A DNA stretch of 41,381 nucleotides, taken from IMG/VR virus record IMGVR_UViG_3300044855_000055. One strand, given 5' to 3'. A program made the translations under genes and the position numbers. The notes beneath the pieces were generated by a model. It saw only the letters and a list, made by a program, of their open reading frames with translations. It was not told the DNA's origin and did not search any database. The DNA comes from a virus. This document shows, in pieces, positions 7,634 through 33,742 of the stretch; the stretch's first letter is position 1; every line of letters starts with the position of its first letter.

Positions 7634-8861
7634 CGCTCGCCTCCGTGCTCGGGGTGTCCTGGGCCGGCTCGTCTTCGCTCGGTTCGTCCTGCTCCTCTGG
7701 CACGTCCTCCACCGGCTCGGCCACCGGCTCAGCACCAGGGGGAAGCGGGCCGAGGCTTTCCTTCTGCCGCACTTCCTCGGGCGTCAGCCACTTATTGCGG
7801 ATCGCGATCTCATACGCCTGATAGCGGGTCGTGATGTCGGACCGCAGCAGCCCTTCGACCAGGAACTCCGCGTACAACTCGCCGTCCTCGGGGAGCACGT
7901 CCCGCTCGATCGCACCCTCAATCCGCCGTAGCCACGGGGCAATCGTGAACTTCTCGAACGACACCATCTCGCTCTGCAGGTTGCCCCACGTCGCGCGGCC
8001 CAACTCCTGAATCATGTGCGGCGGCATCCGCCAGATGCGGCAGATCGCCAGCAGCGATTGCATCCACAGTTCGGCCAACTGGCTCTCTTGATTCGTGGCC
8101 GTGATCGTGTCGGCCTTCAGCCCGTTGCTCAGCACCGCCGTCTCGCCAGCGTTCCTCGCCCCCTTGTGCCGGGCGTTCCACGACTCGCGAAGCCCACGCC
8201 GCTGCTCCTCGTTGAGCACTTGGTCCGTCGTCAGGATCAGCCCCGGCTGGGCTTGGTTCCTGTAGAAGTTGGCCGCGTAGCCCTCCAGGCTGCGGGCCAG
8301 GCTGATCGCATCCCGGCCCAACTCAATCGGCACCTCACCGTGAATGCCGTCGAACGAGATCCACGGAATGTGGCAGATCTGGTCATCGCGGTAGATCGTC
8401 TGGCGGCCCGTCTTCGGGTCCGTGAACAGGTACGTCTTCGTGCCCTCATCGTCCGCCTCGACCTTCATGCCGGCCGGGTTTAACGGCCGTAGTTCGGTCA
8501 CCTGCCCATCGGGGCCGCGGAACTTGAACTGGTAGGACGAGCCGTAGAACCCCATGTGCAGGCAGATCTGCTCGACCCACTGATACCGGGTCTGGTAGCG
8601 GTTCGGCTTCTTGGCGAGCACGCTGTAGATCGCCAAATCCTTGGCTCGCTCAGACGTGTAGTCGTCACGCTTGCGGTAGACGTGCAGCGGCAGGCAGGCG
8701 ACAGTCTCGGCCACCACTCGGGCACAGGCCATGTAGGCCGCCGTTCGCATGGCGGTCTCGGGAGTCACCCGCACGCCAGACTCGGCAGCAGCCGCAACTA
8801 GGTCATCCCAGCGGCTCATCCGCGTCTCAAGCCAGCGGATCTCGGGGAGCGTCGCATCCAT
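7626..8861 (-). CDS. Portal protein, HK97 family
   Basis: 411 aa, between the large terminase and the protease, with an acidic C-terminal tail. Confidence 0.8.
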   Translation of the reverse strand: MDATLPEIRWLETRMSRWDDLVAAAAESGVRVTPETAMRTAAYMACARVVAETVACLPLHVYRKRDDYTSERAKDLAIYSVLAKKPNRYQTRYQWVEQICLHMGFYGSSYQFKFRGPDGQVTELRPLNPAGMKVEADDEGTKTYLFTDPKTGRQTIYRDDQICHIPWISFDGIHGEVPIELGRDAISLARSLEGYAANFYRNQAQPGLILTTDQVLNEEQRRGLRESWNARHKGARNAGETAVLSNGLKADTITATNQESQLAELWMQSLLAICRIWRMPPHMIQELGRATWGNLQSEMVSFEKFTIAPWLRRIEGAIERDVLPEDGELYAEFLVEGLLRSDITTRYQAYEIAIRNKWLTPEEVRQKESLGPLPPGAEPVAEPVEDVPEEQDEPSEDEPAQDTPSTEASDG

Positions 8862-8868
8862 GCGGTGT

Positions 8869-10473
8869 TCACCAGAAGGAAAGTTCGGGCATCGCCTGCG
8901 GCGTCAGGCTTTCGCCCATGTGCGTGCCAATCGCCATCACCAGAGCCACAATGCCGTCGATGCGTTCCGTGCTCTTGGCTTTGCTGGGCTTGATGTTGCC
9001 GGCCGGGTCGCTCTGTACCGCTACGTTTCCTGCTTGCCAGCCTAGCACCGGATGCCCAGCGTGCCGCAGTTTGCCGTCGATCGTGAGTGCCTCAAGACGC
9101 TTCGCCGGGGCACTCATCGACGCGAACCCTTGCCCAAACATCTGCACCGGCAAGCCCTCGGCAACGAGCTCCTGTGCCAGCATCGTCGCGTTCCATCGGT
9201 CGATGGCGATCTGCTTCGGCTGGAACCGCCCGCAGAACTCCATGATGTCCCGCTTGATCGTGGCGTAATCCGTGCTCTTGCCGTCCGTCAGCCGCAGGAA
9301 CCCGTCCCTGCCCCACTGGGTGTAGGGCACCCGGTCAACCCGCTCCCGCTCAGCGGCGTTGGCCTCGGGGCACCAGAACATCGGGACCACGTCGTACCGG
9401 CCAGACTCGTCGGGAAACACCGCCACGAACGCCGACGTGTCCCACGTACTCGCCAGGTCCAGCCCCGCCCAGAACGGCCGACCCTCCAACGGCTCGAGTT
9501 CCACGCCGCAGGCCGCCCACTGGTCAGGACGAATCCACCGGATGTCGCTGGTCGTCGGGATGTTCAACCGATACCGCAGGAAGGCGTTGAGTTTGGTGGC
9601 AGAGTTCTCGGCCTCGCGGCAGTCGGCCGCGAATGACTCCTCGCTGATCGTCTCGCCTAACGACGGGTTCGCCTTGTGCCAGATCTTCGGCGACTTCCAA
9701 TCGTCCTCCCGGTCAGCCGCGTAGATGCAGCCGAAGAACGACGGGTCGAACGTCGGGTCGGCAATGCACCGCTCGGCGTAGTCGTGCTGGTCGTACCAGA
9801 GGTGAGTCTTGTTCGCCTCGCCCGCCGTCGTGATCGACATCACCAGCGGCTGACGCCGGGCTGCACCGCCGTACCGCAGGGCATCCCACAGCCGGCGGTC
9901 GCCACGTTGGGCGTGCAACTCGTCGAAAAGCAGGCAGGAGATGTTGAGCCCCTCGGCCCTGAACGCATCCGCCGATAGAACCCGATAGAACGAGTTGCTG
10001 CCGCGATGCACGATCGTCTTCCGCGAGTCGAGCACCTCCAGCACCTTCGACAAAGCCGGCGACGATCGCACCATCGACGCGGCTTCCCGGTAGATGATGC
10101 CAGCCTGCTCGCGGTCCGATGCCGCACCGTAAACCTCAGCCCCGGCTTCGCCGTCGGCCACCAGCATGTAGAGGGCGATGCCGGCGAGTAGCGTGGACTT
10201 GCCGTTCTTCTTGGGGATCTCGATGTACGCCTGGCGATGCTGCCGCGTGCCGTCAGGTTTTAGCCGGCCGAAGATCTCGCCCAGCACGTACCGCTGCCAC
10301 GGCAGCAGTAGGAACGGTTGCCCGGCCGTCTGGCCCTTGCTGTGCTTCAGCACCGTCTCGAAGAAACGGTACACCCGGTCGGCCTTCGCCTGGTCGATGC
10401 CGGGGCGATGCTTAGCCGTGGGCGGCGAAGAACTCTTCGAGCTCGTCCTTTTTGACTTCGACTTGCGTGGCAA
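8869..10473 (-). CDS. Terminase large subunit
   Basis: Motifs KGQTAGQPFLLLPWQ and Walker-A-like PKKNGKST. The start is uncertain: TTG at 10473 overlaps the small subunit by 62 nt, and an alternative GTG lies at 10374. Confidence 0.85.
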   Translation of the reverse strand: MPRKSKSKRTSSKSSSPPTAKHRPGIDQAKADRVYRFFETVLKHSKGQTAGQPFLLLPWQRYVLGEIFGRLKPDGTRQHRQAYIEIPKKNGKSTLLAGIALYMLVADGEAGAEVYGAASDREQAGIIYREAASMVRSSPALSKVLEVLDSRKTIVHRGSNSFYRVLSADAFRAEGLNISCLLFDELHAQRGDRRLWDALRYGGAARRQPLVMSITTAGEANKTHLWYDQHDYAERCIADPTFDPSFFGCIYAADREDDWKSPKIWHKANPSLGETISEESFAADCREAENSATKLNAFLRYRLNIPTTSDIRWIRPDQWAACGVELEPLEGRPFWAGLDLASTWDTSAFVAVFPDESGRYDVVPMFWCPEANAAERERVDRVPYTQWGRDGFLRLTDGKSTDYATIKRDIMEFCGRFQPKQIAIDRWNATMLAQELVAEGLPVQMFGQGFASMSAPAKRLEALTIDGKLRHAGHPVLGWQAGNVAVQSDPAGNIKPSKAKSTERIDGIVALVMAIGTHMGESLTPQAMPELSFW

Positions 10474-10879
10474 GCTTCGTTCTCGACGAGGGGGTCAGCC
10501 CGAACTCTGACAACAGACTAGCCTTCATGGCAACCAACGAGCGGTACATCGGCCCCGCCGGGTTGGGCTTCACGCCGCCCAGGTCCGTGTGCATGACCGC
10601 ACCGCCAGCACGGAACTGGAGCAGGCACGACTGCTCAGCCGAGTGGACTTCGCACAGCGTCGCGAGGGCTTCGCCGTCGCCGGTCGTCAGCACGCCCATC
10701 CGAGTCAGGATGCCGGCGAGCTCGTTCCACTTCGCCACAGCCACCTCGTCCACCGCGAGACGCTCGGGCATCGGCGGAACACCCGGCGGCATGCTTGGCT
10801 CGCGGCCTGCACGCTTCTTTGCAGTTCCTTCGAGTATCCGTAGGCCCGAAGGCTTGGGTCGCCGACCTGCTTTTGCCAT
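10412..10879 (-). CDS. Terminase small subunit, P27 family
   Basis: ATG with AGGAG 6 nt upstream. The pattern A...W..L...L...GVLT..D...L...C and the C-terminal EFGLTPSSRTKL are typical of the P27 family. Confidence 0.75.
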   Translation of the reverse strand: MAKAGRRPKPSGLRILEGTAKKRAGREPSMPPGVPPMPERLAVDEVAVAKWNELAGILTRMGVLTTGDGEALATLCEVHSAEQSCLLQFRAGGAVMHTDLGGVKPNPAGPMYRSLVAMKASLLSEFGLTPSSRTKLATQVEVKKDELEEFFAAHG

Positions 10880-10957
10880 GACTCGCTCCTGCTAATCGGC
10901 CCGCTAAGGGCAAGTCCCGTGCCGCTAAATGTGAGAAAAACCCCGGCGATTTCGATG

Positions 10958-10985
10958 CCGCGTACGCACGCTTCCCCGTACGCGG
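10958..10985. repeat. 9-bp perfect inverted repeat CCGCGTACG-N10-CGTACGCGG in the HNH-to-TerS gap (cos-region candidate)
   Basis: Read directly from the sequence. On the minus strand a short CGGC/GCCG hairpin followed by GGGTTTTT comes after it. Confidence 0.4.
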
Positions 10986-11015
10986 TCTATAACAAACGGC
11001 CAAAAGTTTTCACAA

Positions 11016-11354
11016 TCATCGACTGCCATTCTGGCTGTTGCGTTTTGCAACAGAGCGCCACCCCTCATGCTTGGCGTGGCACGAAACGCACAGCACCCGG
11101 AGGTTGGCCACCTCATCCGTTCCACCCTGACGCTTCGGCACGATGTGGTCCACATGCGCCCGCTTGCCATGCACCAGGCAGCCGCACACCTGGCACTGGT
11201 AGCCATCCCTCAGCAGCACCTCACGCCGTGCTGCCTTCCACCCTTGCGAGCAGTAGCCCCGCTGGTGAGCGGTCGGCCTGCCGATGTCGGGAGCCCTTGG
11301 CTTGGGCTTCTTGTTGACCCACGGCGGCTTGAACGTCGGTATGCGGTCTGGCAC
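11016..11354 (-). CDS. HNH endonuclease
   Basis: The pattern CQVCG...HVDHIVP...GGTDEVANLRVLCVSCH is an HNH motif. It lies immediately upstream of the terminase, as in HK97-like cos phages. GTG start inferred at 11354. Confidence 0.8.
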   Translation of the reverse strand: MPDRIPTFKPPWVNKKPKPRAPDIGRPTAHQRGYCSQGWKAARREVLLRDGYQCQVCGCLVHGKRAHVDHIVPKRQGGTDEVANLRVLCVSCHAKHEGWRSVAKRNSQNGSR

Positions 11355-11355
11355 G

Positions 11356-11712
11356 TCAGCCCTTGAACACGGCGGTCCCGATGGTGCCCGTGCTGTTCGT
11401 GGTGGCCGACAGCAGCTTGATGTACTGCGTGGCAAACACCTCGTCGGGCAGGGCATAGGCACGGCCTTCGGTAGTGGACGCGGCGAGGGTCACCTTCACC
11501 ACGGCCCCGTCCTTGTCGTACAGCTGGAAGAACGGGCCGCTAGTGCTATCGCTGGCCCAGATGTTGATCTGGGTGGCTGCGGTCAGCATGGTGCCGACCT
11601 CGATGTGCCCGCCGGCCATGTCAAGCATTGGCAGCGTGTTGGCGACCGAGGTGGCGGTCGAGAGCGTGAACGCGAACGTCTTCGACTTGCGGCGGATGCG
11701 AACTTCCGACAT
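11356..11712 (-). CDS. Hypothetical protein (beta-rich, possibly virion-associated)
   Basis: 118-aa ORF with normal amino-acid composition. Its stop lies 1 nt before the HNH start. Confidence 0.55.
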   Translation of the reverse strand: MSEVRIRRKSKTFAFTLSTATSVANTLPMLDMAGGHIEVGTMLTAATQINIWASDSTSGPFFQLYDKDGAVVKVTLAASTTEGRAYALPDEVFATQYIKLLSATTNSTGTIGTAVFKG

Positions 11713-17551: not shown

Positions 17552-18078
17552 CCGACGTGTACCCACCATGACGGGGACGGTTCGTGCGTGACGCCACAGG
17601 GACCGTTGCAGCACTGGTTGACGGCCGTGCGAACCATGAACGGCTCTTTGTCGTAGTAGTCGTGGCCGGCGAGGATTCCGCCCACCTTGACTTTTGGTGC
17701 CCAAGCGGCGATGTCCCGCGTGCATCCGGCAAGCGAGTGGTCGCCGTCGAGGTACACGAAGTCGAGCGACCGATCGGGGAACGTGTTCGCGGCGGCGACC
17801 GAGTCCATTCGCAGGATCGAGCACCGATCCCGATGCTTCAGGGCCACTAGCAGGGCTTGCTGGTGCCGCTGTTCGTGCTCGTCGTCTGACCCGTTCATGA
17901 TGTCGTCGTAGCCGTCGATGTGGCACCAGCGGTCCACCATGACGTACTTGCCCGGCCACAGGTCGAGAAAGACCTTGGAGTAGTTCCCCTCGGCGACGCC
18001 GACTTCGACGGCTGTGCCGTTGAACCAGAGAGCCTGCAGGTACAAGGGGAACATGTTGCGATGCACAGGCTTGATCAT
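17548..18078 (-). CDS. Class I SAM-dependent methyltransferase (Methyltransf_24/TylF-like)
   Basis: Start at MIKPVH (18078) with an ATGA overlap to the RusA stop. Motifs: VEVGVAEGNYS and FVYLDGDHS......DI..W..KVKVGGILAGHDY. Confidence 0.6.
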   Translation of the reverse strand: MIKPVHRNMFPLYLQALWFNGTAVEVGVAEGNYSKVFLDLWPGKYVMVDRWCHIDGYDDIMNGSDDEHEQRHQQALLVALKHRDRCSILRMDSVAAANTFPDRSLDFVYLDGDHSLAGCTRDIAAWAPKVKVGGILAGHDYYDKEPFMVRTAVNQCCNGPCGVTHEPSPSWWVHVG

Positions 18079-18476
18079 GTGATGGTTACCACCGTTCTGC
18101 TGGTCGTGCCGTACATCTTCGAGACGACGAGCCGGCACACCTGAGCGTCGTCTCCGATGATTGGACCGAGTGAGTCAAGCGCGGACTTGGCGATGTTGTC
18201 GGCGTCGGCTCGCGGCCACTTGGGGGCGGTAGCCTTCACGCCCTTCTTGTTCATGTGCGACGGCGGCCGGGCGAACTCGGCGATGATCTCAACCTGCACG
18301 GCATGGTCCACCGCTCGCAGGCCAGCCGCTCTAGCAGCTGCGGCGACAGCCTGGCGGTAGGCATGGACCGGATGCTTCGCTGGCACGTAGGCGCGGGCGA
18401 ACCCGCCCCGAGTCGAGACTCTCGGCCTCGGCTGCGGGACGGGCTCGCCTAGCACCACGAACGACACCGGGTTCAT
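18075..18476 (-). CDS. RusA-family Holliday junction resolvase
   Basis: Pattern: GEPVPQPRPR ... P.....KPD.DN..K...D.L.G....DD.QV..L...K. Confidence 0.8.
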   Translation of the reverse strand: MNPVSFVVLGEPVPQPRPRVSTRGGFARAYVPAKHPVHAYRQAVAAAARAAGLRAVDHAVQVEIIAEFARPPSHMNKKGVKATAPKWPRADADNIAKSALDSLGPIIGDDAQVCRLVVSKMYGTTSRTVVTIT

Positions 18477-18622
18477 TCGCCCCTCGCTGCGATATACAGA
18501 CCGACGTTGGCGAAGGCATACCCGAGGTACGCCAGGCCCAGCCCCGGCTTGCCATGCCAGGCCAGATCCGCAGCGACCACGAGGTAGATGGCGCCCGTGA
18601 GGATGATTAGCGAGGGCGACAT
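18473..18622 (-). CDS. Small hydrophobic protein (49 aa), putative
   Basis: My own translation: MSPSLIILTGAIYLVVAADLAWHGKPGLGLAYLGYAFANVGLYIAARGE. Its stop overlaps the RusA ATG (ATGA). It is below the ORF-track size cutoff. Confidence 0.45.
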   Translation of the reverse strand: MSPSLIILTGAIYLVVAADLAWHGKPGLGLAYLGYAFANVGLYIAARGE

Positions 18623-18693
18623 GGCACGTCCTGCGGTGCGCCCGGTGTCCGCCGGGTCACTGGCAGAATGCCAGACGCGTCAAGAAAGCCGTC

Positions 18694-18797
18694 TTATACG
18701 GCCCCGCATAACGCCGGCTTTCCCCGTCACGCCGCAGGCTGGCGTCGATTCGGCGGCGCGTTATACGGCAGGGGGTGCGTTATACGGGGCCGTATAA
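18694..18797. promoter_or_regulatory. Cluster of TTATACGG half-sites (operator-like palindromes)
   Basis: Three sites: TTATACGG-CC-CCGCATAA (18694..18711), GCGTTATACGG (18758..18768) and the perfect-arm palindrome TTATACGG-GG-CCGTATAA (18780..18797). All lie in a 189-nt gap between ORFs. Confidence 0.45.
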
Positions 18798-18811
18798 ATG
18801 TGGTTCTGTGG

Positions 18812-19084
18812 CTATCCGACACGCCTCCAATCTCGGCACCACAACACCCACGAGCGGTCGCCGCAAACAGGCTCGCCGAGTCTCTTGGCAAGGATGCTTT
18901 CCTCACCAATAGCCGTGATGACGATCCGCTCAGGCCCGCGCCCTTCGTCGCCCTCAAGAATGGTGCCGACGCCCCATCCGTTGATCCTGCACCAGTCGGC
19001 AGCCGAGCAGTCGCGGGCCGTGATCTTGAGGTTCGCCACAGAACCAAGCATTGGAGCAGACATCTCATTATCCTCCTGCGTCAT
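18812..19084 (-). CDS. Small early protein S10, hypothetical
   Basis: 90-aa ORF that starts inside structured head element 19040..19124. Confidence 0.55.
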   Translation of the reverse strand: MTQEDNEMSAPMLGSVANLKITARDCSAADWCRINGWGVGTILEGDEGRGPERIVITAIGEESILAKRLGEPVCGDRSWVLWCRDWRRVG

Positions 19085-19124
19085 GGTGAATCCTTCGTTC
19101 GATGCTGCTCAATGCAGCCGTTCT
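19040..19124 (-). repeat. Structured cassette-head element, copy at S10
   Basis: Minus strand: AGAAC-N5-CAUU-GAGCAG-CAUC...loop with ATG...GAUG-U-CUGCUC-C-AAUG-N4-GUUCU. Confidence 0.6.
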
Positions 19125-19507
19125 CAGACCATTCGTTTCATCAGCCCGCGTGCCACAGCGACCGCCGCCATGTCATCGTCGGCGTGGCATCCGTTCTCCT
19201 TGCGGTCGATCTCGGAATACTCCGTCACGGCCTCGCACAGCCGTTCAATCGCCGTCCGCTCCTCGTCGGTGAGCGTGGGCGCTGTGCCGCCGCCATCCAC
19301 CCCGCGAGCCGTCGCATGGCCGGGCCGCAGCCCAAGGGCATCGCGGAGCGTGGCCCACATGGCGTCGGCCTTGTCTCTCGGCACATCGGCCGACACCCAG
19401 CGCCCGGCCTCGTAGAGCGCAAGGGCTGCGGCGCGAACCGCGTCCCCGTGAGAACCAGCGGATGCAAGAGACGGCTCGTTCGCGTCTCGCGTGTTGTCAG
19501 TGTCCAT
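19124..19507 (-). CDS. Small early protein S9 (C-terminal PTLTDxE..AI motif family)
   Basis: Start at MDTDNT (19507). It shares the motif APTLTDEERTAIERL...ARGL with S2 and S4. Confidence 0.55.
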   Translation of the reverse strand: MDTDNTRDANEPSLASAGSHGDAVRAAALALYEAGRWVSADVPRDKADAMWATLRDALGLRPGHATARGVDGGGTAPTLTDEERTAIERLCEAVTEYSEIDRKENGCHADDDMAAVAVARGLMKRMV

Positions 19508-19536
19508 GTCTCGCCGCTCCTGATCCTTCACGTTAG
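19451..19536 (-). repeat. Structured cassette-head element, copy at S9
   Basis: Helices GGAU/AUCC, CAGGAG/CUCUUG and CGGC/GCCG, with the conserved bulged U and C. Confidence 0.6.
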
Positions 19537-19847
19537 CCGACCCACTGGCCGGTTCTTGGGTCTTGAAATCCGTTGATCTCGTCTGGCAGCGGAGTGCTGC
19601 AAAGCATCTGCACAAGCGCTCGCCCCTTCGGCGTGACCTCAAAGCCGTGATCGCACTGGCCGCCCTTCACGATCAGACCATACTCCATGAACTCGCGCAG
19701 CGCATCGACAACCACCGGAGCGTCCCTGTTCGGGATTTCGTCGCAGTGACAGTGGCAGTGCAGTAGCACCGAAATGTATGCGGGAGACAGCCGCCACTTA
19801 CGGCTAACCACCGGATGCAGCGGACTCGCGTCAACGTCTGAAATCAT
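19533..19847 (-). CDS. Small early protein S8 (Cys/His-rich), hypothetical
   Basis: 104 aa containing LLHCHCHCDE. It starts inside head element 19802..19891. Confidence 0.55.
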   Translation of the reverse strand: MISDVDASPLHPVVSRKWRLSPAYISVLLHCHCHCDEIPNRDAPVVVDALREFMEYGLIVKGGQCDHGFEVTPKGRALVQMLCSTPLPDEINGFQDPRTGQWVG

Positions 19848-19891
19848 GTCGTCCTCCTGCGGCTGCGAGCCGCTGATCCTTGTCGTTAGCC
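19802..19891 (-). repeat. Structured cassette-head element, copy at S8
   Basis: Helices GGCUAAC/GUUAGCC (7 bp), GGAU/AUCC, CAGCGG/CCGCUG and CUCGC/GCGAG. Confidence 0.6.
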
Positions 19892-20368
19892 TGCTGCCCG
19901 TCGCAGTGCGGGCCGCTTCCGTTCATGCGACCCGCCGTAAACGGCCTTAACCCAATCGTAAGCCTCCTCGCAGTGTCCCGCTGGGGTCGGGCCGCTGATC
20001 GCCAGATACCACAGGAACCCATATCGGTCGTGCGGATCGCGGGTGAACTCTATTCGACCTGCAACCCCGTCAGATGCCGCGAACACCACAAGCCCCTCAG
20101 AGACAGCCACCCGATAGCGAATGCCTCGCAGGTTCACGGAAGCCGGGAGTTTGTCAATCGACTGACCATACCACCGCCAGTGCCACATCGGCCCGAATCC
20201 AGTGGCAGGCGTCATCCACGCCCCCATGCCGACGTTCACCCATACGTAACTCGTACCGAAGCAGCGGTGTGCCACAACAGCGAAGGGGTAGACGATTCTC
20301 CACCAGAACCTACGCAGGCTAACCACACGATGCAGCGGACCCGCGAGAGCGTCGGTTGGTTTATTCAT
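19886..20368 (-). CDS. Small early protein S7, hypothetical (Trp-rich)
   Basis: Start at MNKPTD (20368), with GAGGA 6 nt upstream. Confidence 0.55.
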   Translation of the reverse strand: MNKPTDALAGPLHRVVSLRRFWWRIVYPFAVVAHRCFGTSYVWVNVGMGAWMTPATGFGPMWHWRWYGQSIDKLPASVNLRGIRYRVAVSEGLVVFAASDGVAGRIEFTRDPHDRYGFLWYLAISGPTPAGHCEEAYDWVKAVYGGSHERKRPALRRAAG

Positions 20369-20408
20369 GGTCATTCCTCGCGGGCCGCTGATCGCAAGCG
20401 TTCTGTGG
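20319..20408 (-). repeat. Structured cassette-head element, copy at S7
   Basis: Helices CGAU/AUCG, CAGCGG/CCGCUG and CCCGCG/CGCGGG. Confidence 0.6.
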
Positions 20409-20684
20409 CTACTTGTCTTCCGTTGGCAGGGCTGGGAGCGGCACCCAGTGGGTGACTGCCACTTCATTCCCGCGATCAATCCAGCAATGGCGACTGTATA
20501 GCGTGGCCGTGTAGCCGACGAACCGTCGCCCGCCGGCTGTCAGCGCCGCAACGTGCTGCCCAATATCAGGCAGTCGCTCCGTCACTGGAATCCAACGGTC
20601 AAGGGTCGCTTGACTGTTCGCCACAGAACCAGCGGATGCAGGAGGCATCGCTGCCGAGTCCTGCGGTGTAGTTGAATCACTCAT
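20409..20684 (-). CDS. DUF551-like protein (S6)
   Basis: Contains WIPVTERLPD......THWVPLPALP, a DUF551 hallmark. Confidence 0.65.
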   Translation of the reverse strand: MSDSTTPQDSAAMPPASAGSVANSQATLDRWIPVTERLPDIGQHVAALTAGGRRFVGYTATLYSRHCWIDRGNEVAVTHWVPLPALPTEDK

Positions 20685-20715
20685 GCGATGCTCCTGATCC
20701 TTCACGTTCTCAGCC
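20622..20715 (-). repeat. Structured cassette-head element, copy at S6
   Basis: Helices GGAU/AUCC, CAGGAG/CUCCUG and CAUCGC/GCGAUG. It is nearly identical to the S2 copy. Confidence 0.6.
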
Positions 20716-21009
20716 GTCAAGGCAGAGGTTTGATATTCCGCTCGCGAAGTTTACTGGCTTTCCGCTCTCGTCGCGGATCACAAGATCGACGCGGTACAGA
20801 TACGAAGGGTCGTAGTCGCACTCAACTTGCTCAGCACGCACTACCTCCCAATCGAAAGAACCGAACCGCACTTTCTGGCCCACTGACGGGAGAATGGACG
20901 CCGGCACAACCGTTGCCCCAATGACGCGACGCCAGCCCGCAACCAACACGCGGTTGTTTGACCGCCGCAAAACCTCACCAGAGCAGTTCTCTACCAACTT
21001 CCAGGACAT
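20710..21009 (-). CDS. Small early protein S5, hypothetical (no head element; coupled to S4 by a TGATG overlap)
   Basis: 99-aa ORF. Its ATG shares one nt with the S4 stop. Confidence 0.55.
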   Translation of the reverse strand: MSWKLVENCSGEVLRRSNNRVLVAGWRRVIGATVVPASILPSVGQKVRFGSFDWEVVRAEQVECDYDPSYLYRVDLVIRDESGKPVNFASGISNLCLDG

Positions 21010-21305
21010 CAGAACAGTCTCTTCGCCAAGCCGCGCAACGCTTCGGCGTGTGCGGCGACCTCTGGAGTGTCTTCCTCATCCCACTCGTCGGCCTCTCTGG
21101 CAGCCCATGCAATCGCAAGTTGCTCCCCGTCGGTGAGCGTGGGCTGCGGCGTGCGGTAGAGCGACTGCACTGCCATGTCGCCCGCAGCAACCTTCTCTGC
21201 GTCAGGCTTGTGCAGAAAAAAGGCTGCGTGGTCAGTCCACTCCACCATCCACGCAACCGGCCGAGAACCAGCCGATGCAACAGACCGCTCATTTTCGTCG
21301 CTCAT
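21009..21305 (-). CDS. Small early protein S4 (PTLTDxE..AI motif family)
   Basis: Start at MSDENERS (21305). Motif: QPTLTDGEQLAIAW...ALRGL. Confidence 0.55.
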   Translation of the reverse strand: MSDENERSVASAGSRPVAWMVEWTDHAAFFLHKPDAEKVAAGDMAVQSLYRTPQPTLTDGEQLAIAWAAREADEWDEEDTPEVAAHAEALRGLAKRLF

Positions 21306-21353
21306 GTTGGCCGCCTCCTTTGTTCGCGGCTGTTGATCGTACACGTTCTGTGG
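21264..21353 (-). repeat. Structured cassette-head element, copy at S4
   Basis: Helices CGAU/AUCG, CAACAG/CUGUUG and CCGC/GCGG. Confidence 0.6.
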
Positions 21354-21638
21354 CTACTTGCGAGCCGTTGGCGGTGCCGGAAGCGGCATCCAGTGAGTGA
21401 TCTTCTTGCCGAAGTTCTCGTCCGCGTCTCGCCATTGCCCCCACAAGTCCAAATGGGCGAGGTGTAGGCCGTCGCTCTGGCTCCACACCAGCACCATCAA
21501 GTGCTTGGCCGGGCACCGCTCCGTCACCGGAATCCAGTCCGGCTCGGCTGCAATCCGAATGATGTCCGCGATCCCTTTCGCCAGCACTTCACCCACAGAA
21601 CCATCCGATGCAACAGACCGCTCATTCGTATCGCTCAT
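21354..21638 (-). CDS. DUF551-like protein (S3)
   Basis: Start at MSDTNERS (21638). Contains WIPVTERCP......THWMPLPAPP. Confidence 0.65.
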   Translation of the reverse strand: MSDTNERSVASDGSVGEVLAKGIADIIRIAAEPDWIPVTERCPAKHLMVLVWSQSDGLHLAHLDLWGQWRDADENFGKKITHWMPLPAPPTARK

Positions 21639-21687
21639 AGTCGCCGCCTCCTTTGTTCGCGGCTGTTGATCGTTCACGTTCTCAGCC
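21594..21687 (-). repeat. Structured cassette-head element, copy at S3
   Basis: The helices match the S4 copy, although the ORF body is different. Confidence 0.6.
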
Positions 21688-22020
21688 CGGCCGCTCCAGC
21701 AGCCCGCGTAGAACGTCCGCCGCACGGCTGGCCCCGTCGATTGTAGCGCGGTCGTTCGCCATGCCAGCCGTCGCATCGCAAACCAGGGCGCCGTATTCAA
21801 TCGCCGCCCGCTGCACGTCGGTGAGCGTGGGCGAGCGGCACAGCGGGGCGACGCCGTGATTGCCAGTCACCACTTCGTCAATCGCCTTGGCCTCCTCTTC
21901 GTTGCGATAGACATCGTAGACGCTGCCGTCGATCCGCAGCACCGCCCACGCCACCGGCTGAGAACCAGCGGATGCAAGAGACATCGCCTTGCCGTCCTGC
22001 GGTGTAGTCTCGTCAATCAT
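21682..22020 (-). CDS. Small early protein S2 (PTLTDxE..AI motif family)
   Basis: 112 aa with the motif SPTLTDVQRAAIEY...VLRGL. Confidence 0.55.
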   Translation of the reverse strand: MIDETTPQDGKAMSLASAGSQPVAWAVLRIDGSVYDVYRNEEEAKAIDEVVTGNHGVAPLCRSPTLTDVQRAAIEYGALVCDATAGMANDRATIDGASRAADVLRGLLERPG

Positions 22021-22049
22021 GCGATGCTCCTGATCCTGCGTGTTCTGTG
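21956..22049 (-). repeat. Structured cassette-head element, copy at S2
   Basis: Helices GGAU/AUCC, CAGGAG/CUCUUG and CAUCGC/GCGAUG. Confidence 0.6.
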
Positions 22050-22050
22050 A

Positions 22051-22344
22051 CTAAACCACTCGCCCGAGATGCTTCACGCGGGGCCAGTAGACCCCCTTCT
22101 TGTTTCCGACCTGAACCAGATACGACCGATGATCGCGAGACATCCCGTACCCTGCTGCCGAGTTGCACCCCAATCCCTCTGGCGGCACCGGCCTCTCGCC
22201 AGCCTCAACGACGGCAACGACCACGCCCACCTTCCGCTTGTAACTGCCGCCTGACACGCTGCCCCAATACACGCCGTCTCCGACCTGGAACTCCTCCACC
22301 ACAGAGCCACGCGATGGAATGGACTGCTCATTCTCGTCTGTCAT
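22051..22344 (-). CDS. Small early protein S1 (possible SH3/Tudor-like fold)
   Basis: 97 aa. The FQVGDGVYW...KVGVVVAV pattern recurs in 31432..31698. Confidence 0.5.
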   Translation of the reverse strand: MTDENEQSIPSRGSVVEEFQVGDGVYWGSVSGGSYKRKVGVVVAVVEAGERPVPPEGLGCNSAAGYGMSRDHRSYLVQVGNKKGVYWPRVKHLGRVV

Positions 22345-22390
22345 GTGTCATGCTCCTGTGTTCGCTGCCATTCATCGCAAGCGTTATGCG
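22299..22390 (-). repeat. Structured cassette-head element, copy at S1 (diverged)
   Basis: Helices CGAU/AUCG and GAAUGG/CCAUUC. The outer arm has degenerated. Confidence 0.5.
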
Positions 22391-22737
22391 AATGAAAAAT
22401 GCCGCTTACCAGATTGCGGCGACGGTGTTGAGCCCCGCCGGTTCGCCTTGCCCGCCCGGCTCGGAGGCTCAGCCATACGTCGCATCACCCACCGACAATA
22501 GGCAAGGAGTGGCGTCACCGGGAGATCATCCCGGCCTCGTACTCTCGGCGCGCTTTCCGGTTTCCTTAGTCGCGTCACTTGCCGTCGTCGCTCCATCAAA
22601 TGTCGTTCACGCATAACCACGCGTTCTCAGGGTGTCCCCAAACTCATGGCGCACACAGGGCGGTCGGCCAACGTCATTCCGCTCCTGCTATCGAATGCTC
22701 TCCGATTGCTCGGCATATTGACCATCGATTCAACACC

Positions 22738-22827
22738 CTGAGAACCAAGCGATGTAGCGGACCCGCGAGCCGCCGTCTGGTTGTAGTTTCGTCAGCGGTC
22801 GCGGGCCGCTGATCGCAGGCGTTCGGC
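22738..22827 (-). repeat. ORF-less copy of the structured head element
   Basis: Helices CGAU/AUCG, CAGCGG/CCGCUA and CCCGCG/CGCGGG plus GAAC/GUUC are retained. The loop has no RBS or ATG. It is homologous to 20319..20408. Confidence 0.55.
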
Positions 22828-22831
22828 GTCT

Positions 22832-22848
22832 TTCCCGCTCGGGACATT
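22832..22848. repeat. 17-nt direct repeat TTCCCGCTCGGGACATT (copy 1)
   Basis: Identical to 23137..23153. A third, partial copy GCCCGCTCGGGATCA lies at 23066..23080. Confidence 0.7.
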
Positions 22849-22872
22849 TCGGGAAAGCCGTTGGTTCCGACT

Positions 22873-22929
22873 GATTTTCCGCGATATCAGCATTTTCCGA
22901 CGCCGGAAATGCGCTTTCGGCGGAAAATC
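22873..22929. repeat. Nested inverted repeats in noncoding DNA
   Basis: Outer pair GATTTTCCG / CGGAAAATC (9 bp). Inner pair GCATTTTCCG / CGGAAATGC (one bulge). Confidence 0.6.
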
Positions 22930-22965
22930 GGTCGTTTCCATGACTACACCGAATGACACCCCCCA

Positions 22966-23062
22966 AGCCGTCTCTTGCATCCGCTGGTTCTGCGTCGGAG
23001 GGCAGCCTCGCCGCCTACCTGAAATGCTCCTCGCCGCTCCTGATCCTGTGCGTTCGCCAACT
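22966..23062. repeat. Rearranged head element: 3' arm inverted relative to 5' arm
   Basis: Plus-strand AGCCGTCTCTTGCATCCGCTGGTTCT (22966..22991) is the exact reverse complement of 19451..19476. A 5'-arm-like GGCGAACGCACAGGATCAGGAGCGGCGAG lies on the minus strand at about 23034..23062. Confidence 0.65.
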
Positions 23063-23136
23063 CATGCCCGCTCGGGATCATCGCCGCCAGTTTCGCCACT
23101 CCGCGCCGGCAGCGTCTCCCATTTTCGCGCCGGCTG

Positions 23137-23153
23137 TTCCCGCTCGGGACATT
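23137..23153. repeat. 17-nt direct repeat TTCCCGCTCGGGACATT (copy 2)
   Basis: Identical to 22832..22848. Confidence 0.7.
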
Positions 23154-23259
23154 ACAGGTTTTTCTGGCGTGTAACAGTTTTTCCCGAGAACGTCGCCTCC
23201 CAACTCATATTTGTAATCCCCCGCTTCCCGTCGGTTTTCCCATACGTTTGATAGGCGCA

Positions 23260-23311
23260 CCCCGGCGGGTTCGGCGGGCCGCTTTATCGGAGCGGTGCCT
23301 GCCCGCCGGGG
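23260..23311. other. GC-rich stem-loop (10-bp arms CCCCGGCGGG / CCCGCCGGGG with an inner CCGCT/AGCGG hairpin)
   Basis: It lies immediately downstream (minus sense) of the stop of 23323..23607. No U-tract follows, so terminator function is uncertain. Confidence 0.4.
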
Positions 23312-23322
23312 GCGCTGTTCGT

Positions 23323-23607
23323 TTACTCTGCGTACGGCCCCAGCTTCAGTAGCTCGATCCGCCGTTTCACGTAGGGGCTCAACTCCAACGTCTCAGCCCC
23401 GTCCTCGTCCTCAAGCTCCTCGGCAGTCGCCGATGTATGCCTCCAGCAGTATGGCCGCTCTGGCAAGGCGCGGTCACGCGCCAGCCGGCGGACGTGGCGG
23501 TCCGAGACGCCGAGGTCTCGCGCCACCTCCGACACGGTCAGGCTGTGGTCGTTCCACAAGCGAAACAGGGCCGGCACGTCGATGTCGAGTTTGGTCGCCA
23601 CGTTCAA
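23323..23607 (-). CDS. HTH DNA-binding protein (paralog of 17261..17551)
   Basis: 94 aa. The HTH-like segment LTVSEVARDLGVSDRHVRRLA is followed by an acidic EELEDEDG stretch. Confidence 0.6.
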   Translation of the reverse strand: MNVATKLDIDVPALFRLWNDHSLTVSEVARDLGVSDRHVRRLARDRALPERPYCWRHTSATAEELEDEDGAETLELSPYVKRRIELLKLGPYAE

Positions 23608-24719
23608 GCCTCCGTGTCTAGGGGCATGATCACGCCCGTGTAGGTGTCGTCGCTACGCATGACGACCGCCGAGCCCTTGTCCTTGGCCGTGAGGGTCACC
23701 ACCGGGTCACCGCCAGAAGGAAGACACCGCAGCCACTCACGCACGTAGGCCGGGTCGAGCACCACCGAGCACTCATGCCCGGCGTCCTGCACCTCGCACG
23801 TCACGCTCGACTCGCCGGCCTCGGCCGACCGAGCGACCATGTGGATGCCTTCCTTCGTGAACGTGTACCGCACACCCTTCGACTGCTCGCTCGTCACGAT
23901 CGCCGCTGCCGTCGTGGCGGACAGCAGATCCGCCGCCAGGACAACGGTCGGCTCTTGCTCGCCCTTCGGCACAACGTCACGCCACCGAGGGAATCGGCCC
24001 TCGACCAGCCTAGCCGTCAGTCTGACGCCACCGCAGGTGCAGACAACCTCCCGGTCGCTGGCGTCGATCTCCACCATCTCCTGCCCCCCGGCCGCAGCCA
24101 GCGAGTAGAGGATCCCCGCCGCCCGAGCCGGCAGCAGCGTCTGCGACGGGTCAAGGTTCACCGCATTCTCAATCGCCGCCAGGTGCAGCCGCCGCCCGTC
24201 GGTTGCGACGAACGAGACCTGGCCCTCGGCCTCGACCTCGATCAGCACCGCCCCCAGTGCGTAGCGGCTGCTCTCGTTGTCGGTCGCCACCAGCACCGAG
24301 CGAATGGCATGGGCCAGCTGCTCAGCCGGATGCTGAGTCCTCGCCGTCAGCCCTTCCGGCTCCCACGTCGGGAACTCCGCTGCATCCTCGGTCGGCAGCG
24401 TCCAACTGCCACGACCACACCGCACCTCGCACGTCGAGCCCTTCGGCGCGAACGTCACCTCATCGCTGCCCGCGGCGTTCAGAATTGCCAACAGCCTGCC
24501 GTGAGGCAGCAACATGGCATCGCCGTGGTAGTCGATTGCCACGTCCAGGCGGACCTCAAGGTCCGTGGCCGAGACTCGACCGTCACCGATCCTGACGTTC
24601 GCCAGCACCGGCTTTACGGCACGGGACGACACAGCCTTTCCGACCACCTGCAATGCGCTCTTCAGCTCGGCGACGCTTAATGTCACAGTACCAGTCCGCT
24701 TTCGTTCCTTGACTGCCAT
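23604..24719 (-). CDS. dnaN: DNA polymerase III beta subunit-like sliding clamp
   Basis: 371 aa with VSATDLEVRL and FVATDGRRLHLA (the ATDGhRLa hallmark) and three-domain length. Confidence 0.85.
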   Translation of the reverse strand: MAVKERKRTGTVTLSVAELKSALQVVGKAVSSRAVKPVLANVRIGDGRVSATDLEVRLDVAIDYHGDAMLLPHGRLLAILNAAGSDEVTFAPKGSTCEVRCGRGSWTLPTEDAAEFPTWEPEGLTARTQHPAEQLAHAIRSVLVATDNESSRYALGAVLIEVEAEGQVSFVATDGRRLHLAAIENAVNLDPSQTLLPARAAGILYSLAAAGGQEMVEIDASDREVVCTCGGVRLTARLVEGRFPRWRDVVPKGEQEPTVVLAADLLSATTAAAIVTSEQSKGVRYTFTKEGIHMVARSAEAGESSVTCEVQDAGHECSVVLDPAYVREWLRCLPSGGDPVVTLTAKDKGSAVVMRSDDTYTGVIMPLDTEA

Positions 24720-24821
24720 CGTTCGGCTCCTTCCTCAAAGCCACACCCACACACAGCCCAAGGGCGAACGTCGCCGCCTGGACCAAGATTCCTACTGCGA
24801 TGCACGCTACGTGCGTCGTTG

Positions 24822-25016
24822 TCATCGGCGTGCCTCCGCTCGTTCGAGTTGTGCCGCCTGCCTGCCCAGCCGCAGCGTCAGGTCGTCGATGGTTTCGTGC
24901 GACCACTCCAAGAGTTTCCTTGTCGCGTCGTCGATGTGCTCGGGCCACGCATGTATCTCCAGCATGCGAGCCAGCATCACGGGCGACGGTCGCGGGTAGG
25001 GGTTGCCTTCAGCCAT
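24822..25016 (-). CDS. Hypothetical protein (64 aa)
   Basis: Start at MAEGNPY (25016), overlapping the stop of the LexA-like gene. The longer ORF upstream is Arg-rich shadow. Confidence 0.45.
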   Translation of the reverse strand: MAEGNPYPRPSPVMLARMLEIHAWPEHIDDATRKLLEWSHETIDDLTLRLGRQAAQLERAEARR

Positions 25017-25254
25017 CGGTTGCCTCCACGGGAACGGGGGAACGAGCGATGCCGCTGGTCTGCCGCAGCAGCCCCTTGCGGACGAGAGCACTGACGTGGC
25101 ACGCGGCCGTGTTCGGCGACACCCACTTGAAATGCGCCACGATGTCGCGGAGAGCCGGGGAGTAGCCAAGCTCGTCGATGTGCCGGCGGATGTACGCCAG
25201 CACCTCGATTTGCCGAGCCGTCGCGGGTAGGTCTTCGCAGCGTAGGGCGGTCAT
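25009..25254 (-). CDS. LexA N-terminal DNA-binding domain protein (no S24 peptidase domain)
   Basis: ATARQIEVLAYIRRHIDELGYSPALRDIVAHFKWVSPNTAACHVSALVRKGLL..TSGIARS is collinear with the E. coli LexA N-terminus. The protein ends at 81 aa. Confidence 0.8.
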   Translation of the reverse strand: MTALRCEDLPATARQIEVLAYIRRHIDELGYSPALRDIVAHFKWVSPNTAACHVSALVRKGLLRQTSGIARSPVPVEATDG

Positions 25255-33607: not shown

Positions 33608-33742
33608 CAGTCAACCAATCCCACCTTCAATCCTCCCAACTTGCCCCGGCCAGCCGACCCTCCGTAGGATCGACTGACGGGGAAGTTTCAACGGAGAGGG
33701 CTCCGTTAAACATCTGTACACTACGGGGGAAGGAGGTGCCCG

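Follow-up and report, generated by a model that had tools for sequence, protein, structure and literature searches.

The early region of phage T7 carries RNase III hairpins with internal loops between its early genes, on the mRNA strand. To our knowledge these sites are not repeated recombination units, do not enclose the start codon of the next gene, and have neither AAC/GTT boxes nor complementarity across a gene. In T4-type phages, regulatory stem-loop repeats known as PeSL reportedly flank small early ORFs in hyperplastic regions, for which modular shuffling has been proposed; each unit is said to have an early promoter, and homologous recombination is the proposed mode of action. Cluster K mycobacteriophages reportedly possess conserved repeats (SAS/ESAS) at many translation starts, some of them with inverted repeats. 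The SAS are said to be motifs of ~13 nt upstream of starts with proposed translational roles, and we know of no attC-like fold, bulges or cassette boundaries in SAS/ESAS.

The bottom strand of an integron attC site has AAC in its R' box and GTT in its R'' box, extrahelical bases at positions 16 and 23/24 that flank a 6-bp stem, an unpaired spacer and a variable terminal structure, and is cleaved between A and C (Nivina et al. 2016, PMC5027507). Integrons and CALINs have also been described in phage genomes. In the passage of Qi et al. (2023, Front Microbiol, PMC9892861) concerned with them, attC clusters, occasionally with intI, are reported from temperate and virulent phages, 17 CALINs were found in isolate genomes, and IntI1 recombines phage attC sites; that passage mentions no cassettes read from the bottom strand, no starts embedded in attC, and not the high-GC freshwater phage family considered here.

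We propose, with a probability of about 0.85, that the ~86-nt heads of small ORFs in the 41 kb of viral DNA analysed here (41,381 nucleotides, the window) are integron-type attC sites, and that positions 18803-22825 hold about ten promoter-less cassettes of a temperate tailed phage. Because the window encodes no integron integrase, the array would be a CALIN, a cluster of attC sites that lacks such an enzyme. An initial annotation did not identify the element as an integron attC site; among the roles that it listed, the evidence essentially bears out one, a recombination junction that shuffles gene cassettes. As in T7, structured internal-loop hairpins lie between early genes on the mRNA strand; as with SAS/ESAS, conserved repeats occur at the translation starts of many phage genes; and as with PeSL, repeated stem-loop units flank small early ORFs. 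In contrast to PeSL, a search of the array found no promoter signal above chance, and the units here show attC geometry and matching cassette ends.

A covariance model (R1), for which the 10 window copies were the only input, gave 10 matches in the window, all on the minus strand and confined to the array, with none elsewhere. The expectation of at least ten structured copies with compensatory changes was borne out, with 10 full copies between 19040 and 22825 and one broken copy. Their length is 85-86 nt and not the 85-95 nt first described. RNAfold gives 10 of 10 copies the same fold. A 5-nt end box leads into a 5x4 internal loop and a 4-bp stem; a bulged C separates this stem from one of 6 bp, and a bulged T separates the latter from a stem of 4-8 bp, which is capped by a loop. 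The sites and the ends of the array are as follows.

22741..22825, minus strand: attC-type site E1 (R1 62.5 bits, and fold); long form with neither RBS nor ATG in its loop; ends CGAAC...GTTCT; the copy conserved most widely across related loci.
22303..22387, minus strand: attC-type site E2 (R1 73.2 bits, and fold); ATAAC...GCTCT; ORF 22051-22344 starts in its loop.
21961..22046, minus strand: attC-type site E3 (R1 82 bits, and fold); Shine-Dalgarno AGGAG in the 6-bp stem, ATG at 22020.
21597..21682, minus strand: attC-type site E4 (R1 89.4 bits, and fold); loop holds RBS and ATG (21638).
21264..21349, minus strand: attC-type site E5 (R1 94.4 bits, and fold); loop holds RBS and ATG (21305).
20625..20710, minus strand: attC-type site E6 (R1 82.3 bits, and fold); ATG at 20684.
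20319..20404, minus strand: attC-type site E7 (R1 71.3 bits); hybrid end boxes AGAAC...GTTAG; ATG at 20368.
19804..19889, minus strand: attC-type site E8 (R1 71.6 bits); CTAAC...GTTAG; ATG at 19847.
19451..19536, minus strand: attC-type site E9 (R1 83.7 bits); hybrid end boxes CTAAC...GTTCT; ATG at 19507.
19040..19124, minus strand: attC-type site E10 (R1 78.1 bits, and fold); final hairpin of the array; ATG at 19084.
18803..18812, minus strand: terminal R'-type box GCCACAGAAC, which closes the last cassette with no hairpin after it; a 10-nt complement of GTTCTGTGGC, which follows E10.
18690..18802: conserved post-array junction (CACATTTATACGGCCCCGTATAAC...), with inverted repeat I6 and two copies of the 18-bp palindrome TTATACGGCCCCGYATAA.
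~22945..23054: broken eleventh copy with inverted repeats I1-I4; its 5' arm occupies 23025-23054 of the minus strand and, compared with element 2875-2960 of the related locus L087, its 3' two-thirds (ATG...GTTCT) is inverted, on the plus strand at 22945-22991.

Pairing holds in 87% of cells among the 10 window copies, and both partners have changed in 16 of 23 pairs; none of 500 shuffles matched this pairing and covariation, and slid controls were only 28-39% paired. The covariation was kept when homologs were added: across 148 distinct relatives, pairing rises to 94% of cells and 13 of the 14 inner pairs co-vary. The extrahelical base at position 16 is C in 154/158 copies and that at position 23 is T in 148/158, with the 6-bp stem separating the two. 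That both bulges and the pairing persist at this level implies that selection has acted on the fold beyond sequence identity. Conservation had been placed at the nucleic-acid level and, like the architecture described at the time, this was correct. The 3' arm is translated since RBS, ATG and first codons all lie in the loop of the long forms, and it is read in two frames, as ...ASAGS... and as ...LHPVVS... A double-stranded DNA site bound by a regulator was considered and rejected as a misfit with the conserved single-base bulges.

The minus strand carries the genes and matches an attC bottom strand in its geometry. On its 5' side each site has an R' box with AAC at its end, followed by 5 unpaired spacer nucleotides and a 4-bp stem; the core consists of an extrahelical C (position 16, counted from the 3' end), the 6-bp stem and an extrahelical T at position 23; and the remainder comprises a further stem, a variable terminal structure, a 4-nt spacer and an R'' box opening with GTT. 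The AAC/GTT-ended single-strand hairpin, unpaired spacer, extrahelical bases 16 and 23, 6-bp stem and variable terminus are all attC-like, as are cassette ends that match across a gene and a highly diverse content of unknown function. Arrays on one strand, sites <4 kb apart and the absence of intI nearby are features shared with CALINs (Cury et al. 2016, PMC4889954).

Matches to R1 in bacterial genomes form arrays whose sites measure 56-62 nt or about 120 nt; the sites share the arm T-CCGCTG-C-ATCG and have canonical boxes (gcCTAAC/GTTAGgc), and some of these arrays adjoin integron integrases (TIGR02249, 419-432 bits; cut-off 265). When three clinical class 1 integrons were searched, the top three R1 matches, all on the bottom strand, were the plasmid attC sites of aadA5, aac(6')-Ib and aac(6')-IIc (E = 7e-4 to 5e-3; next match, E = 1.7). 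A TIGR02249 search for an integron integrase in the 41 kb window found none; the sole tyrosine recombinase there (33743-34651) scores 18.7 bits against the cut-off of 265 and aligns weakly with IntI. In the viral contig L071/L247, a long-form array is followed immediately by an intI (281.6 bits) that shares its strand.

The sites also depart from canonical attC. Their R boxes are mostly (G)AGAAC/GTTCT(C), a misfit to the consensus RYYYAAC/GTTRRRY, C replaces the usual G of canonical attC as the first extrahelical base, and the spacer is 5x4 nt. Elements occur in discrete sizes of 45, 52 and 85-86 nt, and the 45 nt forms fall below the published attC range of 57-141 bp. The short forms (45-52 nt) have a ~5 nt loop and no start codon, and are preceded by a stop codon and followed by the next RBS; loop size across sites runs from ~5 to 37 nt. 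Unlike in attC/CALIN arrays, the genes here occupy the bottom strand, and reading of the array therefore proceeds from the early side of the phage; the long forms enclose the RBS, the start codon and 8-20 codons. Phage genes are sense to the site in 85/103 bodies, whereas bacterial bodies are antisense in 29/34.

A rival view is that the hairpins serve primarily as RNA in a polycistronic early mRNA, as RNase III-type processing sites, by stabilising the mRNA or by gating translation, the last through Shine-Dalgarno occlusion in the 6-bp stem or through coupling to termination at a TGA overlapping GAGAAC. In phages the folded strand is indeed the mRNA strand, the Shine-Dalgarno or ATG lies within stem or loop, 143/158 copies have a stop codon at the 5' box or no more than 12 nt away, G-U pairs occur (11 cells at one pair among the 148 relatives, for example), and folds with RNA parameters are stable (mean -30 kcal/mol). 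With DNA parameters, the strand resembling the bottom strand folds better by 0.7 kcal/mol (113/158 copies). However, an RNA hairpin does not explain the end boxes. An outer AGAAC/GTTCT helix had been proposed within the element, but only AAC/GTT pairs there, and the 3' box pairs instead with the 5' box of the next element: beyond AAC/GTT, complementarity averages 4.55 nt between a 3' box and the next site's 5' box, against means of 1.75 nt inside a single hairpin and 1.63 nt when boxes are paired at random (Mann-Whitney p = 7e-23). The homologous sites of bacterial integrons are antisense to their genes, so the bulge geometry is not tied to the transcript; R1 recognises class 1 attC bottom strands, arrays adjoin intI, an Rfam search with the element returned no match, and the short forms, including the 45-nt forms, lack translation signals. 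A primary role at the RNA level is thus quite unlikely, and the T7-like RNase III site suggested at the outset is unsupported as the primary function.

Each cassette consists of hairpin, gene, stop codon and xxAA, with the stop in or adjoining the next AAC box. The genes of the array are as follows.

22051..22344, minus strand: cassette ORF, 97 aa, phrog_11941.
21682..22020, minus strand: cassette ORF, 112 aa, PTLTD family.
21354..21638, minus strand: cassette ORF, 94 aa, DUF551.
20710..21305, minus strand: fused cassette of two ORFs, S4 (21009-21305, PTLTD family) and S5 (20710-21009).
20409..20684, minus strand: cassette ORF, 91 aa, DUF551.
19886..20368, minus strand: cassette ORF, 160 aa, no family match.
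19533..19847, minus strand: cassette ORF, 104 aa, no family match.
19124..19507, minus strand: cassette ORF, 127 aa, PTLTD family.
18812..19084, minus strand: cassette ORF, 90 aa, DUF7241 / phrog_2939.

As first annotated, nine ORFs begin inside a copy, the loop of E1 contains no ORF start, and S5 (start 21009) is headless. Judging from L087 (958-1140 and 2280-2600), the hairpin between S4 and S5 has been deleted, and for this reason the S4 stop is overlapped as TGATG. The 89 cassette proteins compared fall into 61 clusters.

The related locus L060 has flanks 91-93% identical to the window and a different array content, and its flank homology stops exactly at the terminal box (18803..18812). 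In at least 12 related arrays the terminal AAC runs straight into the junction motif, a candidate attI-like anchor or operator. The E8 hairpin and its body recur at 93% identity in other contexts (L032 and L405), where the breaks fall at the AAC boxes. In a comparison of 47 close body pairs, the left limit of homology coincides with the upstream hairpin's 5' AAC in 21 of the 32 informative cases, and the right limit with the downstream hairpin's 5' AAC in 23 of 27. Since homology mostly breaks at AAC boxes, the mobile unit appears to be the hairpin with the gene that follows, a canonical cassette. The earlier claim that heads and bodies are reassorted stands insofar as similar heads precede DUF551 and PTLTD bodies, but this is a minority pattern and the head usually moves with the following body.

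The hairpins might instead be homology patches ("boundary sequences") only, at which general or RecT recombination reassorts neighbours with no site-specific recombinase, the attC likeness being ancestral or inert. The phage encodes RecT, hairpins are homogenised within genomes (L087 has many near-identical short copies), 5/32 left boundaries fall inside a hairpin and 6/32 at its 3' end, and some L060 hairpins are chimeras that do not pair or pair poorly. These 11/32 boundaries and the chimeras indicate that not all exchange is site-specific. Nevertheless, boundaries lie mostly at the 5' AAC box on both sides and are not spread over the 85 nt of homology, cassettes show the 7-10 nt end-to-end complementarity predicted by conservative cleavage at a fixed site and not by homologous exchange, and pairing and both bulges are retained. 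We therefore regard homology patches as a very unlikely explanation. Palindromic, multi-copy elements of discrete size could also be selfish miniature inverted repeats or REP-like elements inserted between genes. This seems extremely improbable, as copies sit at every gene junction of the array and only there, in a single orientation, contain the start of the next gene and lack target-site duplications, and their flanks belong to the cassettes.

On the attC reading, and following the integron paradigm, single-stranded DNA of the coding strand would fold into the hairpin site and be bound by an integron integrase supplied in trans. The host could provide this enzyme, or a co-resident phage could, since some related viral contigs carry intI. 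Cleavage would occur between the A and C of AAC, and cassettes would leave as circles and re-insert, so that related phages would exchange small accessory genes of the early region. Very similar hairpins may also recombine by homology, producing the minority of head/body swaps and the chimeric hairpins. It is also likely that the hairpins affect translation or mRNA stability as a side effect, since the mRNA carries the same hairpins. The hairpins would thus divide the early region of a temperate phage into about ten swappable cassettes, a possible route by which small accessory genes are shuffled.

We interpret the array as an integron-type attC cassette array, an identity to which we give a probability of about 85%, and as a CALIN, a cluster of attC sites lacking an integron integrase. 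It lies in the early region of a temperate, tailed phage of 41 kb and ~64% G+C with almost every gene on the minus strand, between an HTH/excisionase-like gene with dnaN and the RusA gene. Products identified in the window are the large terminase, portal, major head protein, tape measure, RusA, RecT, SNF2 helicase, DNA methylase, sliding clamp and tyrosine integrase. The features of the array and its surroundings are:

33743-34651: tyrosine integrase
25009-25254, minus strand: 81-aa protein matching only the LexA N-terminal DNA-binding domain
23323-24719: HTH/excisionase-like gene and dnaN
23604-24719, minus strand: full sliding clamp (DnaN) homologue
~22945-23054: broken eleventh attC-type copy, at the promoter-proximal end of the array
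22741-22825 to 19040-19124, minus strand: the ten hairpins, E1 to E10
22384-22620, minus strand: possible Arg-rich ORF of 78 aa, in the cassette after E1
21009-21305: S4, a PTLTD-family ORF
20710-21009: S5, the second ORF of a fused cassette with S4
18803-18812: box closing the last cassette
18690-18802: conserved junction
18075-18476: RusA gene

The cassette proteins belong to phage families of unknown function (DUF551 / phrog_924 / phrog_60, DUF7241 / phrog_2939 and phrog_11941). A megablast comparison of 24 kb of window sequence with 50,697 GenBank phage records returned zero matches, so that no cultured relative or host was identified, and a scan of 18400-23400 for sigma-70 promoters and intrinsic terminators gave nothing exceeding the shuffled expectation. 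The 78-aa ORF has its TAA stop within the ATAAC box of E2, as in other cassette genes; given its GTG start and weak codon bias, its reality as a gene is uncertain. Integron integrases are commonly SOS-regulated, which makes the LexA-like protein of the window notable.

All ten copies show one architecture when read on the minus strand and folded individually, and are 85-86 nt long. On the 5' side xxAAC is followed by 5 unpaired nt and by stems of 4, 6 and 4-8 bp; the loop measures 20-29 nt, according to the extent of pairing in the innermost stem; on the 3' side the three stems return, separated first by a bulged T and then by a bulged C, and 4 unpaired nt and GTTxx complete the element. An arms-only alignment of the ten copies had 87% of its cells paired, with 16 of 23 pairs changed on both sides, confirming the claim of the initial annotation that a structured element with compensatory changes is repeated here. 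None of 500 shuffles reached the observed pairing or covariation, and slid partners were 28-39% paired. Among 148 distinct copies from relatives, 94% of cells were paired and 13 of 14 inner pairs co-varied. A covariance model built from the ten window copies only (R1) retrieved from the window precisely its source copies, all on the minus strand.

Other forms, of 45-46 and 51-52 nt, keep the arms and bulges unchanged around a loop of only ~5-12 nt, and in the related locus L087 such short forms follow the stop codon of a gene and precede the RBS of the gene after it. The hairpin, therefore, is the conserved unit; the loop is a variable terminal structure, in which a start codon is optional. 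The initial annotation had also correctly placed ORF starts within the elements, as minus-strand reading and ORF translations showed, and was right that the copy at 22741-22825 lacks one and that two different reading frames pass through the 3' arm. In view of these two reading frames, the ORF-less copies and the short intergenic copies, peptide-level conservation of a 'SLASAGS' motif was rejected.

The broken eleventh copy has its 5' arm (GAAC..GGATCAGGAGCGGCGAGGAGCA) on the minus strand and the remainder (ATGACTACACC...GTTCT) inverted to the plus strand, ~33 nt off, as if an inversion of ~80 nt had taken place inside the loop. The plus-strand ORF that this arrangement creates (22953-23174) is probably not real.

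Nivina et al. 2016 (PMC5027507) describe the recombinogenic bottom strand of an integron attC site as running from an R' box with AAC at its end, on the 5' side, through an unpaired central spacer and an L box to a stem and variable terminal structure; extrahelical bases stand at position 16 (usually G) and at 23/24 (a conserved T), with a 6-bp stem between them, the R'' box on the 3' side begins with GTT, and AAC is cut between its A and C. The phage elements resemble this closely. The single-strand hairpin with paired R and L boxes has the same fold in 10/10 copies, and the ends are xxAAC in 156 of 158 elements (5') and GTTxx in 156 of 158 (3'), E2 being an exception among the window copies with its GCTCT end. 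When positions are numbered from the 3' end of an R'' box of 7 nt, C occupies position 16 in 154/158 and T position 23 in 148/158, again with a 6-bp stem between. Spacers are 5 nt in the 5' arm and 4 nt in the 3' arm, and with this 5 × 4 spacer an L stem of 4 bp rather than 3 leaves the extrahelical bases at their positions.

There are, however, departures from canonical attC sites. Besides the spacer and the C at position 16 where canonical sites usually have G, the boxes are AGAAC/GTTCT and do not follow the RYYYAAC/GTTRRRY consensus, most phage copies having TGAGAAC or CACAGAAC with GTTCTCA or GTTCTGT and a minority CTAAC/GTTAG. Some members are very short: loops span ~5 to ~37 nt, length classes are 45-46, 51-52 and 83-88 nt, and the shortest class falls below the published 57-141 bp. 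The bacterial relatives that R1 retrieved do follow the consensus (gcCTAAC/GTTAGgc). These came from an arm-pattern scan of 185,579 species genomes, which yielded loci from Planctomycetota, Acidobacteriota, Proteobacteria and others; R1 revealed in them arrays of 56-62 nt and ~120 nt sites that have the arm T-CCGCTG-C-ATCG in common with the phage sites. One, in a Phycisphaerales MAG (L175), holds 14 sites in 8 kb, with GAA loops. Three bacterial array loci, among them Engelhardtia mirabilis Pla133, carry genuine integron integrases (419-432 bits on TIGR02249, cut-off 265), and further loci carry integrases by tblastn.

As a check outside the phage sequence neighbourhood, R1 was run with filters off against three clinical class 1 plasmid integrons. 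The aadA5, aac(6')-Ib and aac(6')-IIc attC sites ranked as the best three matches, on the bottom strand, opposite to the cassette genes (E = 7e-4 to 5e-3; next match E = 1.7), and the alignment places canonical G16 and T23 on phage C16 and T23. A looser structural scanner with variable spacers gave many false matches and was restricted to the 5 × 4 geometry with the bulged C. One hairpin from the loose version, at 33636-33689 upstream of the tyrosine integrase, proved on inspection not to be attC-like.

The relation between neighbouring elements is also that of integron cassettes, the R'' side of each matching the R' side of the next. Perfect complementarity beyond AAC/GTT averaged 4.55 nt when the 3' box of an element was compared with the 5' box lying beyond the following gene, at the start of the next element (n = 101; ≥4 nt in 82%; Mann-Whitney p = 7e-23), vs. 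1.75 nt within a hairpin and 1.63 nt in random pairs. Examples are GTTCTGTGGC...GCCACAGAAC around the DUF551 and DUF7241 bodies (the gene stretches between hairpins) and GTTAG...CTAAC around the bodies of the 20368 and 19847 ORFs. Were the outer AGAAC/GTTCT no more than the base of an RNA hairpin, every 3' box would be expected to match the 5' box of its own element, and these figures show that it does not. Across-gene matching is an integron cassette property: an inserted cassette carries the two halves of its own R box at its two ends. It also counts against the alternative that the hairpins serve primarily as RNase III processing sites of the T7 type, which would not account for box pairing that runs across gene bodies; nor did any Rfam family match 18000-23800 at permissive E-values, and an RNA role would be possible only as a secondary effect.

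The last window cassette in turn closes with GCCACAGAAC (18803-18812), after which no hairpin follows. S5 lacks a hairpin and overlaps S4 as TGATG, as the initial annotation had stated, and this junction (21005-21011) suggests a deletion. The PTLTD cassette of L087 has CTGTTCTGAGAAC at its end and is followed by a hairpin, and the S5 homologue is 14 N-terminal codons longer; in the window CTGTTCTGA is joined straight to TGTCCTGG, giving the overlapping stop and start.

Such elements are common, with at least 120 loci in each of two collection scans: a pattern scan of IMG/VR, in the first hundred loci of which R1 found 134 elements, and a metagenome scan that added its loci to these. The restricted scanner counted at least 509 elements and at least 328 bodies in 170 loci among the matches listed. 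Content varies greatly, as 89 cassette proteins from viral loci fell into 61 clusters, 54 of them singletons. The relative L060 is 91-93% identical to the window over the flanks (23203-24746 upstream, 18690-18807 downstream), and its array of 7 sites is largely different in content, the downstream homology stopping exactly at the terminal AGAAC. An early nucleotide-level clustering of bodies gave only 5 pairs, and protein-level clusters were too distant to link hairpins to bodies; this linkage was achieved only after the metagenome loci were added, when 47 body pairs of ≥85% identity could be analyzed for the position of their boundaries.

Position of homology breaks beside 47 body pairs (≥85% identity; loci include those of the metagenome scan)
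Left side (upstream hairpin), 32 informative: 5' AAC box, 21; inside hairpin, 5; 3' GTT, 6
Right side (downstream hairpin), 27 informative: 5' AAC box, 23; inside hairpin, 0; 3' GTT, 4

Since most breaks fall at AAC boxes, left and right alike, a hairpin with the gene that follows it is the unit that usually moves. For example, the window 19847 cassette recurs at 93% identity in two other loci (L032 and L405), with breaks at the AAC boxes. A unit bounded in this way is what cleavage between A and C of AAC on the bottom strand would predict. The other, minority breaks point to probable additional homologous exchange between similar hairpins. In L060, two hairpins (10481-10565 and 9789-9874) are chimeric, with 5' and 3' arms that derive from different attC types and have lost their pairing (e.g. 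CATT-GAGCAG with CCGCTG-C-ATCG), evidence of homologous exchange inside loops. Such exchange explains the 'reassorted heads' of the initial annotation, where heads are the hairpins; that description is correct, although it covers the less frequent pattern. Overall, the observation made in the initial annotation was confirmed and its interpretation was supported in part.

A CALIN comprises at least 2 attC sites on one strand, <4 kb apart and without intI (Cury et al. 2016, PMC4889954). The window has 10 minus-strand sites 306-779 nt apart, and tblastn with three IntI proteins found nothing in its 41 kb. Without an intI adjoining the array it is not a complete integron, and in the absence of an integron integrase it is a CALIN by definition. 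The window's own Xer-like tyrosine integrase was considered for this role and rejected, as it scored 18.7 bits vs. a cut-off of 265, with no convincing similarity to integron integrases; a sequence search of it against PDB chains returned no match. It lies 11 kb from the array, and homologues are found near arrays in four other loci (L059, L067, L015 and L083). In L090 a homologue of this non-IntI enzyme (45% identity, 10544-11476) adjoins an attC array (8669-10494) on the same strand.

Integron integrases do occur in viral contigs. One of these (L247, also numbered L071 and L041) has a long-form array and, immediately beyond it, an intI scoring 281.6 bits (cut-off 265), which shares its strand with the genes and the bottom-strand-like sites; the contig is phage-like and, judging from an N-terminal motif, encodes a putative DnaB-like protein. 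In IMG/VR, a profile scan located IntI relatives on at least 222 predicted viral contigs. Among the best 80 of the 222 (L246-L325), many are 35-45 kb long and many have attC-like hits just upstream on the same strand, several contigs having an attC-like hairpin at 0.4-1.2 kb. Two contigs (L254 and L273) show an extra ORF right after intI, which from its N-terminus is a putative phage integrase of the ordinary kind. On the simplest reading, phages of the window type would depend on an integrase acting in trans.

The distal end of the arrays is also regular. In 10 of 12 arrays a matching R'-type box closes the last cassette, and in at least 12 arrays the AAC of the terminal box is followed by a junction, CA(N)TGTTT(A/C)T(A/G)CGG..CCGTATAAC, with no integrase adjoining. 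In the window this junction (18690-18802) contains, directly after the terminal AAC, two copies of an 18-bp palindrome, TTATACGGCCCCGYATAA (18694-18714 and 18777-18797), and a half-site. The junction may serve as an attI-like anchor or, alternatively, as an operator of the RusA operon downstream.

Genes run antisense to the model strand in 29/34 bodies of the bacterial arrays, as in class 1 cassettes, and sense to it in 85/103 bodies of the phage arrays. A sense stop codon lies in the 5' box, or ≤12 nt from it, in 143 of 158 elements, among them TGA overlapping GAGAAC (52 times) and TAA inside xTAAC (36 times). In 51 of 75 long-form sites an ATG in the loop opens an ORF that reaches the end of the body, and these sites thus hold the RBS, the start and 8-20 codons.

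Qi et al. 2023 (PMC9892861) had already described integrons and 17 CALINs in phages, where IntI1 recombined phage attC sites. The present array is of the same kind. It differs from the phage CALINs described there in its bottom-strand coding, translation starts inside attC, AGAAC box subfamily and abundance in viral and metagenome contigs. Our literature search found no paper on bottom-strand coding, starts inside attC, the AGAAC subfamily or such abundance. We suggest tentatively, and at slightly less than an even chance, that the arrays are a phage-adapted form of integron and not stray bacterial cassettes, and that they are a regular engine of accessory-gene mosaicism in widespread temperate phages. 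Cassettes would then be read on the attC bottom strand from a phage early promoter, the attC loop would double as a translation-initiation region, a conserved attI-like anchor in the backbone of the phage would mark the end of the array, and the integrase would be encoded by some members of the phage group.

The small early accessory genes of phages are famously mosaic, which is mostly explained by illegitimate or homology-driven exchange. In the present array every small early gene is bracketed by a defined recombination site that is structure-specific, and comparison of loci shows that hairpin and gene move from phage to phage as whole units that break at the AAC box. Were the sites active, the reach of integron recombination would widen from bacterial adaptation to the shuffling of phage genes, and attC sites would be shown to tolerate, in nature, a translation start and coding sequence inside them. 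The hundreds of phage cassette genes of unknown function would then become a defined pool that could be mined, perhaps for anti-defence or host-takeover functions.
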